Assembly (NCBI GenBank): GCA_963666835.2
Contig: CAXXGO010000006.1
Span: 224,001 to 288,000, forward strand
Origin: Phycisphaerae bacterium
Lineage (GTDB): Bacteria; Planctomycetota; Phycisphaerae; UBA1845
Reading direction: 5' to 3'
DNA: 64,000 bases
Program-made: the position numbers and the translations under genes
Notes under the pieces: generated by a model
The model's database searches: none
What the model was told of the DNA's origin: nothing
What the model saw: only the letters and a program-made list of their open reading frames with translations
Shown: positions 295 through 61,704 of the stretch, one piece after another
Position numbering within the stretch: the stretch's first letter is position 1
Layout of the letters: every line of letters starts with the position of its first letter

Positions 295-930
295 GGACCG
301 CACCCGTAACGCAGGCATCATGCCTGCAGAACCCCCCTGTAACGCAGGCATGATGCCTGCAGAACGCTGCACAACGTGCAGCTCAAAAAACGCGAGCCGC
401 CACGGGCCAACAAGTTGGCCCATGCCACCCATTTGTCACTTCCCGTAGGGCAGGTCGAGGTACGAGACCTGCCATACTAGCTGCTGCGCCGCTTCGTTTG
501 CCCTGGGCTTTGCTGTTAAACGCCTTCGGCCTATGTTCACAAGACCCACATCGCGCGGAGACCGCGGCAGGTCTCGTACCTCGACCGTACCCTACCGCCG
601 CCTACGCCGCCCTGTGCATGCCGCCGGCGCTCTCCGGCATTCCGGAGAACCCGCCGGCGTGCGTGAACATCATCGGCTCCCCCGGGTCCGAGCCATCCTA
701 CTCCCACGACCCTCAACAATCCGGATCACATCCCAAGCCTAAGAGGACCCGGGCCACCCAAGCCGCCACGGGCTAACAGGTTGGCCCATGACACCCATTT
801 GTCACTTCCCGTAGGGCAGGTCGAGGTACGAGACCTGCCGCAACGGCGCGCCTCAAGCAAAAACTGCGTGGCCATTCGAGTCCCCCGCCTCTAAAGAGGC
901 GGGCCACCCCACCAAACCCATGAATCCCCC
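295..930. repeat. Mosaic cluster of REP-like palindromes, including a 79-bp direct repeat
   Basis: GTAACGCAGGCATCATGCCTGC-type units near 306 and 339. GTAGGGCA(C)GGTCGAGGTACGAGACCTGCC at 445-473 and 811-839, inverted at 566-595. Near-identical direct repeat 395-473 / 761-839. Confidence 0.85.
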
Positions 931-10318: not shown

Positions 10319-10546
10319 GTAGGGCAGCATCGAGGCACGAGACCTGGAAAGCACCGGAATAAACCGGCATGGAGTAGCGGATGAAAGAGCCGTACAGGAA
10401 AGGGCTAAGGTAGGAGCTGTATGACGTAATTCTCCACGTACGGATCTGTGCGGGGGGTGGCCCGAAAGGGCCATTCCTACCGCGACCCGCGAAGACGCAT
10501 GTCGCGCGAAAACCACGGCAGGTCTCGTGCCTCGACCGTGCCCTAC
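10319..10546. repeat. Inverted REP pair (REPIN-like); left arm interrupted by the mini-intron
   Basis: GTAGGGCAGCATCGAGGCACGAGACCTG at 10319-10346 and an inverted copy at 10517-10546. Confidence 0.85.
10347..10486 (+). mobile_element. 140-nt group II intron mini-derivative (5' end fused to DV-DVI) inserted in a REP
   Basis: The first ~61 nt match 35364-35424. They are followed by DV (GAGCTGTATGACGTAATTCTCCACGTACGGATC) and DVI ending CCTACCGCGAC. Flanks are GAGACCTG|CCGC. Confidence 0.9.
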
Positions 10547-18371: not shown

Positions 18372-18812
18372 GGAGTGGGCGAAGGCGATCGCCCGCACGT
18401 CATCAGCACGCGCGGGAGGAAAGTCCGAACTGGACAGGGCCCGGTGATTGGTAACGCCAACCCGGCGTGAGCCGAGGGAAAGTGCCACAGAAAAGACACC
18501 GCCGATGTCGGGGCGTTGTGCCTCCGGGTGACAATGCCCCGGCAGGTAAGGGTGAAATGGTGCGGTAAGAGCGCACCGCGCGACCGGTGACGGTCGTGGC
18601 AGGGTAAACCCCACCGCCAGCAAGCCCAAATAGGCAGCGAGAGGCGGCCCGTCTCGTTGAGCGGGGATCTGCGTCGGCCGAAACCGGCCGAGCGATGACT
18701 CCGCTTTGAAGCTGCGGGTAGGGCGCTCGAGCCGGCGGGTGACCGTCGGCCTAGATAAATGATCGCCACGCCGCCTGTGCGGCGGACAGAATTCGGCTTA
18801 TCCGCCCACTCC
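18372..18812 (+). ncRNA. rnpB: RNase P RNA (type A)
   Basis: GAGGAAAGTCC, GAAAGTGCCACAGAAA, GGTAAGGGTGAAA, GGTAAGAGCGCACC, GGTAAACCCCAC, AGATAAATGAT, ACAGAATTCGGCTTA. P1 helix GGAGTGGGCG/CGCCCACTCC. Confidence 0.97.
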
Positions 18813-19457
18813 ATCCGATCCGGCGCGTTGCTCAGTCGGTCGGCTTTCTGACGATCCGATCTCGCCGGGTGGCTGGAAGTTGGTCCCGTAGACCTGACGC
18901 ACGATATCGGCGAATTCACCGGGAAGCGGATCGGCCGACGGCGAAGTCGGACCGCGGCGCTGGTCGGCGGGCGGCGGCTTGTCCACCCGAACGGCCGCTC
19001 GGCGGCTCTCCGCCAGGATCTTGGCCAGCGCCACCAGTTCGTCGGTGGGAATCTCCTGCTCATTTAGGGCCAGCCGCTCATACACCAGCCCTACCAGCAT
19101 CAGGTATGCCCGGTGATCCCACAGATCCGGGCTGCAGTCGGCCAGGTGGCCGAACATCCCTTCGAGTACGGCCGCAACCGACGCCTGCCGGCGGCGATGT
19201 CGGACCAAAACGCCGCCCGCCCGCGCCGCCGCACTTGCATTCTGCTCGAGGTCATTCACCCTGGCCGCTTGGTGGACCCGCGACAGGTAGTTGCGAAGTC
19301 GACGGCGGGTGATCCCATACCGGCCGGTCAGAGCAAGACGGGTGTCAAGCTCCTCTACAAGGGCGGCGTTCACGTCGTCAGCGGAACGGGCTGCCGATTC
19401 GAGCTCCCGGACGACCGTGGCGGGCAGGAGCCTCTGCAAAGGGGTCCGAGCGGCCAT
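18798..19457 (-). CDS. Mu gp27/DUF3486-like protein
   Basis: Starts MAARTPLQRLLP, has an HTH-like YGITRRRLRNY and a C-terminal 'EFADIVRQVYG'. Coupled by TGATG to the upstream gene. Family assignment is by resemblance. Confidence 0.55.
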   Translation of the reverse strand: MAARTPLQRLLPATVVRELESAARSADDVNAALVEELDTRLALTGRYGITRRRLRNYLSRVHQAARVNDLEQNASAAARAGGVLVRHRRRQASVAAVLEGMFGHLADCSPDLWDHRAYLMLVGLVYERLALNEQEIPTDELVALAKILAESRRAAVRVDKPPPADQRRGPTSPSADPLPGEFADIVRQVYGTNFQPPGEIGSSESRPTEQRAGSDGVGG

Positions 19458-30589: not shown

Positions 30590-30630
30590 GTAGGGCAGGT
30601 CGAGGCACGAGACCTGCCGCAACGGCGCGC
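30590..30630 (+). repeat. Empty REP target site of the group II intron
   Basis: GTAGGGCAGGTCGAGGCACGAGACCTG|CCGCAACGGCGCG matches the joined flanks of 35364-36033. Confidence 0.9.
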
Positions 30631-33740: not shown

Positions 33741-35168
<1,428 letters not shown>

Positions 35169-35235: not shown

Positions 35236-35281
35236 TGAGAAAAGGGGGAGCCGAGCCCATCCGGCTCCCCCGTTCTCTTTT
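35236..35281 (+). terminator. Intrinsic terminator-like hairpin after ahcY
   Basis: GGGGGAGCCG-loop-CGGCTCCCCC followed by GTTCTCTTTT. Confidence 0.6.
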
Positions 35282-35363
35282 CGCTACCCCCTTGACGGAG
35301 GCTCGCTCATAGACGCCATTCCGTTGGCATACCCCGTAGAGCACGGTCGAGGCACGAGACCTG

Positions 35364-36033
35364 GAAAGCGCCGGGATAAACCGGCATGGAGTAGCGGATG
35401 AAAGAGCCGTACAGGAAAGGGTTAGCGTCCCATCCTGACCCCGAGTCATGCGCCGGGGGTCGCAAGGCCCCGGGCGAAGCGTTGACAGGGGCACAGGTGG
35501 GCCCGGCTATTGAGCTCCGAAAACGTGTACGTCTGCCGTGCCGACCCAGTCAGGTCACGGGGAAGGCCACATGAGCGGTGACGATAAGCGCGAGCCGTCG
35601 CTTGACGCCACGGAGTCGAAGACCCTGGGCACGCTTGGAAGCTCTATGCGCGAGAACCGGGAGGCCCCGAAGACTCCCTCGGCGGATAGCACCGGGGAAC
35701 GGTCGGAGAAGGGGGTTTGCCGAACGTCCGGCATGTACGTCTACGGGGAGTCGGACGATCTCATAGTACCAACGAAGCTGGCGAACAAAGCTGGGTAACC
35801 GGTGGCGGAGTCGGTGGAGGGAAGGGGATCGACCAAGGGCAACACCTTGCAGACTGCTGCGGGCCGGGCACAGCACCGGAAGCCCGGGCTCAGAACCGGG
35901 AAGCCCGCATCGATCGGGCTGGATGGTGTACGATCGACTGATCGTTATGACCCGAGGTAGGAGCCGTATGAGGTAATTCTTCACGTACGGATCTGTGCGG
36001 GGGGTGGCCCGAAAGGGCCATTCCTAGTGCGAC
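35364..36033 (+). mobile_element. ORF-less group II intron inserted in a REP
   Basis: DI-like motifs (CCCCGAGTCATGCG, GAAGCGTTGACAGGGG, ATTGAGC), Id3 loop with EBS1 CAGGTC at 35551-35556, GGGGAGTCGGAC/ATAGTACC DII-DIII region, DV GAGCCGTATGAGGTAATTCTTCACGTACGGATC, DVI, 3' GAC. No RT ORF. Confidence 0.93.
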
Positions 36034-36083
36034 CCGCAACGGCGCGTGGCGCAGCGCTTTGTAGTGAGTTGTGTTCCACAGCG

Positions 36084-36653
36084 CTAAAGCGATGGGCCAC
36101 CCGGCGTCCGCGGGACGCAGAACAGCCCTAAAGCCACGACCAGAAGCCCTACGGACATGCACATGACAACCGGACGGGTCTCGCGATCGCAGAAGACGCG
36201 GTCGTAATCGTAGGCCGGCAGATGACTCGCAAAATTGGTGACCAGCGGCGGCGGAGCCGCCGGTTGGGGTATAAACGGCTCCGCAGAGTGCTCATCGAAG
36301 GCTACTAATGAAACCGGGGCGTAATCGGCGGCGGCAGCCACGCGGACCGTGCGATCGCCGATCCGGCGGAATCGCAGATCGCGTTGGGCCAAGCGGTCGA
36401 TGACGGCCGGGTCGGTCCGCATCGCCTCCAACTGCCGCCGCTCCCGGTCCACCGCTCGCTGCACTTGTTGCAACCGATGTTCCTCCGCCTGACGGGCCAG
36501 GTCGAGCGTCTGATAGGCCCGCCATTCCGGGAGGATCACGCACGGGGTAAACGTACCGAAGGCCAGCAGCACAAGAAGCCAGAAGACAACCGTCCCCCCG
36601 TGACGAGGCGGATGGTGCGCCGGCGGCGGTGACCCGAAGTTCGCCTCAGTCAT
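36084..36653 (-). CDS. FtsB/DivIC-like septum-formation-initiator protein with extra C-terminal TM
   Basis: N-terminal TM, coiled coil, 'MRTDPAVIDRLAQRDLRFRRIGD' motif; immediately downstream of eno. Confidence 0.65.
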   Translation of the reverse strand: MTEANFGSPPPAHHPPRHGGTVVFWLLVLLAFGTFTPCVILPEWRAYQTLDLARQAEEHRLQQVQRAVDRERRQLEAMRTDPAVIDRLAQRDLRFRRIGDRTVRVAAAADYAPVSLVAFDEHSAEPFIPQPAAPPPLVTNFASHLPAYDYDRVFCDRETRPVVMCMSVGLLVVALGLFCVPRTPGGPSL

Positions 36654-57479: not shown

Positions 57480-58048
57480 CGCGGGTCTCGTTCCTCGACC
57501 GTGCCCTACAGCCGCCGATGCTGCCCTACAAGGAGGCCGTCGTAATCAGCCTCGGTGGCAGGTCTCGTTCCTCGACCGTGCCCTACACCCGCCGATGCCG
57601 CCCTACAAGGAGGCCGCCGTAATCAGCCTCGGTGGCAGGTCTCGTTCCTCGACCGTGCCCTACACCCGCCGATGATGCCCTACAAGGAGGCCGTCGTAAT
57701 CAGCCTCGGTGGCAGGTCTCGTTCCTCGACCGTGCCCTACAGCCGCCGATGCTGCCCTACAAGGAGGCCGTCGTAATCAGCCTCAGTGGCAGGTCTCGTT
57801 CCTCGACCGTGCCCTACAGCCGCCGATGCTGCCCTACAAGGAGGCCGTCGTAATCAGCCTCGGTGGCAGGTCTCGTTCCTCGACCGTGCCCTACACCCGC
57901 CGATGCTGCCCTACAAGGAGGCCGTCGTAATCAGCCTCGGTGGCAGGTCTCGTTCCTCGACCGTGCCCTACACCCGCCGATGCCGCCCTACAAGGAGGCC
58001 GTCGTAATCAGCCTCGATGGCAGGTCTCGTTCCTCGACCGTGCCCTAC
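57480..58048. repeat. 77-bp tandem array built on the REP (7 units plus terminal REP)
   Basis: GGCAGGTCTCGTTCCTCGACCGTGCCCTAC starts at 57480 (degenerate), 57557, 57634, 57711, 57788, 57865, 57942 and 58019, with near-identical 47-bp linkers. Confidence 0.95.
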
Positions 58049-60892: not shown

Positions 60893-61704
60893 GCAGGGAT
60901 GCCTGCGCTACGCGAAAAGCAAAGGCAGGTCTCGTGCCTCGACCGTGCCCTACCCCTGGCACCGCGGCTCCGCCCACGCCGAGGGCGTACTCGGACGGGA
61001 CGCAGTCCGCACATCACAGAGAGGACTCTCTCATCTCGTCTGCCAAGGCTAGTACCATTGGGCTGAGCCCGACCTACCGCACTGCAGGGATGCCTGCGCT
61101 ACGCGAAAAGCAAAGGCAGGTCTCGTGCCTCGACCGTGCCCTACCCCTGACACCGCGGCTCCGCCCACGCCGAGGGCGTACTCGGACGGGACGCAGTCCG
61201 CACATCACAGAGAGGGCTCGCTCATCTCGTCTGCCAAGGCTAGTACCATTGGGCTGAGCCCGACCTACCGCACTGCAGGGATGCCTGCGCTACGCGAAAA
61301 GCAAAGGCAGGTCTCGTGCCTCGACCGTGCCCTACCCCTGACACCGCGGCTCCGCCCACGCCGAGGGCGTACTCGGACGGGACGCAGTCCGCACATCACA
61401 GAGAGGGCTCGCTCATCTCGTCTGCCAAGGCTAGTACCATTGGGCTGAGCCCGACCTACCGCACTGCAGGGATGCCTGCGCTACGCGAAAAGCAAAGGCA
61501 GGTCTCGTGCCTCGACCGTGCCCTACCTCTGACACCGCGGCTCCGCCCACGCCGAAGGCGTATTCGGGCGGGACGCAGTCCGCACATCAGAGAGGACTCT
61601 CTCGTCTCGCCTGCCAAGGTTAGTACCATTAGGCAAAGCCGGACCTACCGTACTCTCTCGTTTCGTCTGCCAAGGTTGGTGCCATTGAGCAGAGCCCGAC
61701 CTAC
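60893..61704. repeat. 191-bp tandem array (4 units plus partial) of three REP families
   Basis: GCAGGGATGCCTGCGCTAC starts at 60893, 61084, 61275 and 61466. Confidence 0.95.

Follow-up and report, generated by a model that had tools for sequence, protein, structure and literature searches.

A Group II Intron without an Open Reading Frame inside a Dispersed REP Palindrome of a Phycisphaerae Bacterium, Probably a Stranded Relic of a REP-Homing Lineage

Introduction

The group II intron RmInt1 homes into ISRm2011-2. For bacterial introns in general, three target habits, namely, homing sites, terminators, and attC sites, are named in the review by Zimmerly & Semper (2015; PMC4424553), which also describes the nested introns of Methanosarcina acetivorans as having "a perpetual homing site" and the class C (IIC) introns as inserting after terminator hairpins or into attC sites. 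In the present study, we analyzed a 670-nt group II intron that lacks an open reading frame (ORF) and interrupts one copy of a repetitive extragenic palindromic (REP) sequence in the genome of a Phycisphaerae bacterium (GenBank assembly GCA_963666835.2), within a 64,000-nt stretch of contig CAXXGO010000006.1 (positions 224,001 to 288,000), which is referred to in its whole length as the window and to which all positions given without a contig handle belong. We propose that this intron is probably a stranded relic of an intron lineage that homed into the REP by base pairing. It shares the use of a multicopy neutral homing site with the nested introns of M. acetivorans and with RmInt1, whereas the target in the present case is neither an insertion sequence nor an intron but a 30-nt REP hairpin, of which the genome has about 800 copies.

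Two groups of described introns are close to the window intron in other respects. Like the IIC introns (PMC4424553), it belongs to a lineage that uses a multicopy DNA hairpin as a safe landing site and has a reverse transcriptase (RT) without a recognizable endonuclease domain. It differs from them in that it appears to be IIB-like (of the Rfam D1D4-6 type), with a 6-bp exon-binding site (EBS) 1, an EBS3, and probably an EBS2, and in that it lies inside the 3' arm of the hairpin and takes its specificity from base pairing rather than from the shape of the hairpin. The combination that marks IIC introns (a position just downstream of a hairpin, an intron-binding site (IBS) 1 of 3–4 nt, and no EBS2) is, hence, not that of the window intron. 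ORF-less introns that coexist with related introns encoding an intron-encoded protein (IEP) have been described in Thermosynechococcus elongatus (Mohr et al, 2010; PMC2882425) and, further, as the dnaN introns of Trichodesmium (PMC12584367, PMC4424553). The window intron resembles these in the deletion of the ORF from domain 4 (D4), the retention of the ribozyme, and the presence of a related RT-encoding intron in the genome, but it is a single ORF-less copy and the available RT is distant (56–59% identical).

The insertion sequences ISPpu9, ISPpu10, ISPa11, ISPsy8, and IS1397 share the habit of targeting REPs (PMC1525189), but they are DNA transposons. A table of Tobes & Pareja (2006; PMC1525189) lists the group II intron of Pseudomonas putida KT2440 as REP-associated in two of its nine copies (22%), with no tie to an EBS drawn in the passage concerned, whereas here five of five copies lie in REPs and EBS1 and EBS3 are complementary to the repeat. 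That table was the sole prior hint in the literature searched for the targeting of REPs or palindromic repeats, and no description of EBS-guided homing into REPs was found there, with most subscription journals outside the search. The repeat itself has the form of the GTAG REPs (Di Nocera et al, 2013; PMC3733652), short hairpins that are preceded on the 5' side by a GTAG tag and scattered by the hundreds between genes, either alone or in arrays; introns are not mentioned in that paper (0 occurrences). The 92%-complete assembly of the present genome yielded no gene for a REP-associated tyrosine transposase (RAYT) flanked by the REP.

Results

The removal of positions 35364–36033 (forward strand) joins the flanks into GAGGCACGAGACCTG/CCGCAACGGCGCG (a slash denotes an insertion or deletion junction throughout), and this string occurs unbroken at 30602–30629 (0 mismatches) and 823–850 (1 mismatch), with matches in 0 of 100 shuffles, so that the removal restores the REP as had been claimed. 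Because the bases differ on either side of both junctions, the boundaries are unshiftable and the insert is exactly 670 nt, beginning with 5' GAAAGCG and ending with GCGAC 3'. A search with the Rfam models indicated that the core of domain 1 (D1; 35401–35625, forward strand) matches the full RF02005 model (group-II-D1D4-6, model positions 1–225) with 172.4 bits, compared with a gathering score of 49, and that D5 and D6 (35959–36033, forward strand, with A36026 as the candidate branch point) match RF00029 with 31.8 bits and an E-value of 2.9e-4, which is under the gathering score of 40. The last position of the latter match coincides with the proposed 3' end, 36033, and D5 aligns base for base with those of relatives scoring 39–44 bits. 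The D2–D4 region (35571–35933, forward strand) contains the remnant of the 5' end of an IEP frame, in which a conserved block, GAGTCGGAC...CATAGTACC...GCGAACAA, is retained, and a deletion junction at about 35930–35934. The element is, thus, an ORF-less group II intron with remnants only of the IEP frame, in agreement with the original prediction.

With respect to the boundary consensus, the 3' AC fits AY, whereas the 5' end is GAAAGCG and not GUGYG. Because the same start is carried by 12 near-identical copies of a sister intron in this genome, as described below, and by introns of three other genera (in genomes G014, G023, and G032), GAAAGCG represents a clade variant, which is compatible with mobility, and not a defect of the window copy. 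Other related introns begin with GUGCG (G017) and GAUGCG (G024). Among 21 sequencing runs, four contained at least half of the sampled words. In the contigs from runs X1 and X2, the occupied allele was found with 0 differences over both intron junctions, and no contig joining 35363 to 36034 was found in the contigs of four runs (X1, X2, X5, and X7). A contig joint of 35363 to 36082, the shorter side of which is just 21 letters, derives most likely from a different REP locus, and a joint of 35421 to 35955 is the mini copy at 10347–10486 described below.

The repeat that the intron interrupts has the consensus GTAGGGCAyGGTCGAGGnACGAGACCTGCC, which ends in ...GACCTGCC. Its 5' part at 35336–35363 (forward strand) comprises the GTAG tag, the 5' arm, the loop, and the 3' arm as far as ...GACCTG, and the last two bases (CC) of the 3' arm are found at 36034–36035 (forward strand), the intron being positioned inside the 3' arm, two bases from its end (GACCTG/CC). 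The two empty-site matches are unoccupied REPs at 30590–30618 (forward strand), which is a perfect target, and at 811–839 (forward strand), which has T at the variable loop base. For the former copy, the predicted DNA fold (−8.9 kcal/mol, z −2.6) consists of the GTAG tag and an 8-bp stem capped by a 9-nt loop. In the whole genome, the 28-mer core of the REP gave 659 matches at ≤4 mismatches (220 on the forward and 439 on the reverse strand) and a 21-mer with one free base gave 801 at ≤1 mismatch, compared with 0 for a reversed control. The window, for which about 25 full or partial copies had been predicted, holds somewhat fewer, with 20 by the 28-mer core (≤4 mismatches) or 21 by the 21-mer (≤1 mismatch). 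When the same 21-mer was searched for in 40 comparison genomes of the same family and order, none of which is of the same genus or species, 39 had 0 matches and G023 had a single one, indicating that the REP is, within this sample, specific to the present genome. The exact 13-nt target, GCACGAGACCTG/C, occurs 272 times in the genome, compared with 0.18 times expected by chance, and all of the 272 perfect sites are unoccupied. Among 760 exact 14-nt REP ends, G-n-ACGAGACCTGCC, the loop position n is variable, with C in 270, A in 242, T in 244, and G in 4. Same-strand tandem arrays of the REP were also observed in the window at 57482–58048 (8 copies at 77-nt spacing) and 60926–61526 (4 copies at 191 nt) and elsewhere in the genome with periods of 58, 83, 150, and 362 nt.

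EBS1, the hexamer CAGGUC (35551–35556, forward strand), lies inside the 9-nt terminal loop GUCAGGUCA (35549–35557) of a hairpin of the Rfam model, as had been predicted, and forms six of six possible pairs with IBS1, GACCTG, in the 3' arm of the REP (35358–35363, forward strand). We aligned the window intron with six homologues (the 12-copy sister and the introns of G014, G023, G032, G024, and G017) and found that the EBS1 loop has seven different hexamers, each of which pairs at six of six positions with the 3'-terminal hexamer of its own upstream exon, whereas the non-cognate combinations of EBS1 and exon (n = 42) gave 0–5 pairs. This covariation across seven introns therefore fixes EBS1, IBS1, and the 5' splice site. 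A candidate for EBS3 is G35618 (forward strand), located 3' of the stem that closes the EBS1 subdomain, which pairs with C36034 (IBS3). The column of G35618 is the sole one in the 300-nt D1 alignment that is Watson–Crick complementary to the +1 exon base in all five introns for which this base is known (G-C three times, U-A, and A-U).

The proposed EBS2, CGUGU (35524–35528, forward strand), is located in an internal loop 5' of the EBS1 hairpin in the Rfam alignment and can pair with GCACG in the loop of the REP (35352–35356, forward strand) at five of five positions, with one G-U. The pairing predicted for EBS2/IBS2 can, thus, be formed, but in a cross-test of the seven introns, the cognate exon pairings were no better than the non-cognate ones, and the chance of a 5-bp match in a 13-nt loop was about 7% by our own estimate. 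The variable REP base in the five REPs that are occupied by the lineage is C in four and T in one, where the G-U pair is kept, and A in none, compared with about one third of all REPs having A. This bias slightly favors the pairing of CGUGU with GCACG, which we regard as plausible.

The 670 nt were compared with the whole genome by BLAST, which gave one full-length match (the window intron itself) and four fragments of the same lineage. One fragment is a mini derivative of 140 nt (10347–10486, forward strand) that consists of the first 61 and the last 79 nt of the intron, including D5 and D6, with 95% and 94% identity, respectively. It matches RF00029 with 32.3 bits over 10412–10486, and it occupies a separate REP copy (10319–10346, forward strand), the CC of which follows directly. 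The other three are intron nt 1–93 with 98.9% identity at G000:C1:352856–352764 (minus strand; G000 is the present genome), where nt 93 is joined within one base of the REP 3' end, i.e., the 3' exon; 27 nt of the intron 5' end after a REP at C6:1508538–1508564; and about 20 nt of the 5' end after a REP on C7 near 29180. All four fragments start directly after ...GACCTG of a REP and have deletions unlike that of the window copy, and each of the five sites has a REP variant and an upstream flank of its own. Nine matches to the junction motif were found in the genome, five of which are a REP followed by the intron 5' end and four of which are unrelated chance matches. Beyond the mini derivative, an inverted REP was also observed at 10519–10546.

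The possibility that the REP is a part of the element was rejected because the REP is lacking both beside the closest full-length relative, which is in G014, and in the G014 genome as a whole (0 matches). Because the five sites share the junction with different flanks and this relative is without REP, the repeat is the insertion target of the lineage and not its cargo. The claim that the intron is programmed against a multicopy REP was, therefore, upheld by the complementarity of EBS1 and EBS3 and by the location of all five copies and fragments at the same position of the repeat.

The G014 intron, which is from another genus, is 1,923 nt long and was the closest relative found, with 87% identity over nt 1–550 and 90% over the last 104 nt; the window copy corresponds to its nt 1–550 plus 1820–1923. 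Its frame is open over 564 codons and matches RVT_1 with 133.5 bits in Pfam, with no GIIM maturase, HNH, or other family at E ≤ 0.01 besides RVT_1. The label "endonuclease-less" for this RT is based on that negative Pfam result and on the end of the frame just before D5. The intron is inserted at GCAGGCAGGATGCCTG/CG, which its EBS1, CAGGCA, matches, in a 17-nt palindrome, GCAGGCAGGATGCCTGC, that is also dispersed (at ≤1 mismatch, G014 has 26 matches and G000 has 69). Ten of the 13 target positions are common to this palindrome site and the REP site, and a few changes in the EBSs appear to have taken the lineage from one palindromic repeat to another, similar one.

Of the IEP frame of this full-length form, the window copy retains the equivalents of approximately the first 114 and the last 10 codons. 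The remnant matches residues 1–114 of the G014 frame by tblastn with 72% identity and is interrupted by a stop. Two ACGA motifs of the full-length form bracket the deletion junction, TACGAT/CGACTGATCG, and the ORF loss looks like a microhomology deletion of about 1,269 nt. ORF-less relatives of 672 and 788 nt were also found in two other genera, in L003 (G023:C237) at 303–974 and in L004 (G032:C123) at 146–933, respectively, each with its own EBS1/exon match. Their left deletion junctions differ from that of the window copy, and the right boundary is similar in all three genomes, just 5' of D5. Because the window copy is far closer to the full-length G014 intron (87–90% identity) than to the ORF-less G023 intron (73%), the three ORF losses were independent.

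The genome also contains an RT-encoding sister intron of 1,927 nt in 12 copies that differ by 0–3 bases, 11 of which have an intact RT frame and one of which (1,928 nt) has a broken frame. The copies are located at G000:C6:319967–321893, at C6:476402, 556014, 673538, 686648, 696219, 726754, 800583, 1555347, and 2624129, at C1:23317, and at C7:44585–46511 (minus strand). All 12 interrupt the 5' arm of another dispersed repeat (GGGTGGGGG ... CCCCCACCC) at ...ATGGGTGGGGG/ACGGA, a site that the sister EBS1, CCCCCA, matches, and the sister target string GGGTGGGGGACGGA has 41 unoccupied exact occurrences. The sister ribozyme is about 70% identical to the window intron. No cognate RT for the window intron was found in the genome, the best match to the G014 frame being the sister RT, with 56% identity by tblastn and 58.7% by blastp. 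A third intron of the same Rfam type was observed at G000:C6:1065094–1067035 (L025, 94–2035), with 146.6 bits for D1D4-6 and 41.9 bits for D5/D6; its RT is about 44% identical to the others.

Signs of decay are present in the window copy. A change from CC to GU at 36027–36028, directly 3' of A36026, creates a G-G mismatch in D6 and is unique to this copy, the corresponding CCGC being kept in the mini copy and in the introns of G014, G023, and G032. The RF00029 score for D5/D6 is 31.8 bits in the window copy, i.e., 12 below that of G014 (43.8 bits), and 36.9 bits in the sister. A BLAST search of the genome gave no second copy with the same ORF deletion junction. The contig depth in the intron was 4.35 and 3 in two runs, which is close to the 3.9–4.2 and 2.4–2.7 in unique flanks and represents weak evidence for a single copy.

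The repeat was also predicted to be of the RAYT type. It has the form of a GTAG REP, with the GTAG tag beside an imperfect palindrome and a high copy number, but none of the nine Y1_Tnp matches in the genome has this REP within 1.5 kb. The RAYT-type label is one of resemblance in tag and hairpin only. Three RAYT-like tyrosine transposase genes (L016 1129–2364, L017 1111–1981, and L018 1415–2187), which score 64–73 bits with NF047646 (cut-off of 80), are flanked by inverted repeats of their own that are unrelated to the GTAG REP. With an assembly completeness of 92%, a REPtron could be absent from the data.

The intron is located in the gap between convergent genes. Upstream is ahcY (33741–35168, forward strand; Pfam AdoHcyase), with respect to which the intron is in the sense orientation, and a bidirectional terminator-like hairpin (35244–35271) lies between ahcY and the REP. 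Downstream are an ORF of unassigned function (36084–36653, reverse strand) and then enolase (reverse strand). Elsewhere in the window, an RNase P RNA of bacterial class A was observed at 18372–18816 (285 bits, Rfam).

Discussion

For the lineage as a whole, homing into the REP is well supported by the sequence comparisons, and the window intron is probably a stranded relic of it. In the proposed mechanism, the exon-binding sites would read the loop and the 3' arm of the genome-specific GTAG REP hairpin, with EBS2 (CGUGU) probably pairing with GCACG at −12 to −8, EBS1 (CAGGUC) with GACCUG at −6 to −1, and EBS3 (G) with C at +1. Retrohoming, which would consist of reverse splicing guided by this pairing and subsequent cDNA synthesis, would have brought the lineage into at least five REP copies, always between ...GACCTG and CC, at a time when an RT of its own kind was available. 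All five insertions later decayed by deletion. The window copy lost about 1,269 nt of the RT gene in D4 between the ACGA microhomologies, with D1–D3, the 5' part of D4, D5, and D6 being kept, and would no longer be mobile.

Several observations weigh against this reading. In three of the four fragments, the 5' end of the intron is preserved and the 3' part is missing, whereas abortive cDNA synthesis would give the opposite, and the C1 joint of nt 93 to approximately the 3' exon is not predicted by simple random deletion. No full-length REP-homing parent was found in this genome, in the related genomes, or in the genome and metagenome contigs. A search for the 20-nt REP/intron junction in the genome contig collection gave four exact matches, which were rejected as chance occurrences in unrelated sequence without an intron, and scans of the metagenome contigs with the 22-nt EBS1 loop and a degenerate 28-nt junction gave 0 matches each. 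The ribozyme is otherwise well kept, its D1 score being 172 bits, compared with 169.4 for the 12-copy sister and 184.4 for G014, and its D5 differs from that of G014 solely by a variant that is also present in G032. Furthermore, the most conserved block of D4, which is common to the sister and could be an RT-binding site, is retained, and the genome encodes a related RT 11 times in intact form. Because the D1 score is high, D5 is intact, and the conserved D4 block is kept, splicing and even rare trans-mobilization of the window copy may be possible.

The strongest alternative is, accordingly, that the window intron is a living non-autonomous element that splices, binds the sister RT in trans, and retrohomes into new REPs, as the original prediction of an element mobilized by an RT supplied in trans had implied. 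The related RT-encoding intron, present in 12 copies with 11 intact frames, would be the source of the protein, but this RT shares just 56–59% identity with the cognate type, and the two ribozymes share about 70%; the RT-encoding full-length parent that had been expected was searched for and not found, the nearest RT being that of the sister. The D1 score equals that of the multicopy sister and the conserved D4 block is retained, but D6 has a mismatch beside the branch A. As many as 272 perfect target sites are on offer, but these hundreds of perfect targets are empty. The independent ORF losses with a similar right boundary in G000, G023, and G032 could mean maintenance of a shortened form; in the present genome, however, the deletion is found in one of one copies, without a second copy, and the four other insertions were deleted differently. 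In addition, the intron lies downstream of a terminator-like hairpin. An active, trans-mobilized ORF-less element is, thus, not supported and we consider it unlikely for the window copy.

Much less room is left for the possibility that the intron is retained as a splicing-only or domesticated RNA, for example, one that modulates read-through from ahcY, with its location in a REP being a historical accident. The well-preserved ribozyme core and the sense orientation downstream of ahcY are consistent with such a role, but the intron lies beyond the terminator-like hairpin in a gap flanked by convergent genes, where splicing would restore no exon function, and conservation of the locus in other genomes was not demonstrated. 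Moreover, the presence of five of five copies of the lineage in REPs argues against an accident, and we regard this explanation as very improbable. A single insertion followed by REP-based DNA spread of a REP with intron ends, through recombination or RAYT-type mobilization, is highly unlikely as well because, although three fragments consist of just 20–93 nt of the 5' end beside a REP, unlike a retrohoming product, the REP variants and upstream flanks differ at all five sites, both ends of the intron are present in the mini copy, within a restored REP, no RAYT linked to the REP was found, and the match of EBS1 and EBS3 to the REP needs no such process.

Group II introns survive in bacteria by landing harmlessly. 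The guide sequences of the intron match a REP of about 800 copies, representing a case in which one class of selfish element lives off another, and related introns sit in two further dispersed palindromes. The set also provides a natural series of retargeted EBS sequences, together with three independent ORF losses, for study. It may be, as a tentative generalization on which we would not yet rely, that the endonuclease-less clade with the GAAAGCG start in this bacterial family specializes in dispersed hairpin repeats, switching between repeat families by a few EBS changes, with ORF-less copies persisting as riders. If this were true, small selfish repeats would be a renewable neutral homing niche for retroelements, and their use would be a fourth target strategy of bacterial group II introns beside unique homing sites, terminators, and attC sites.

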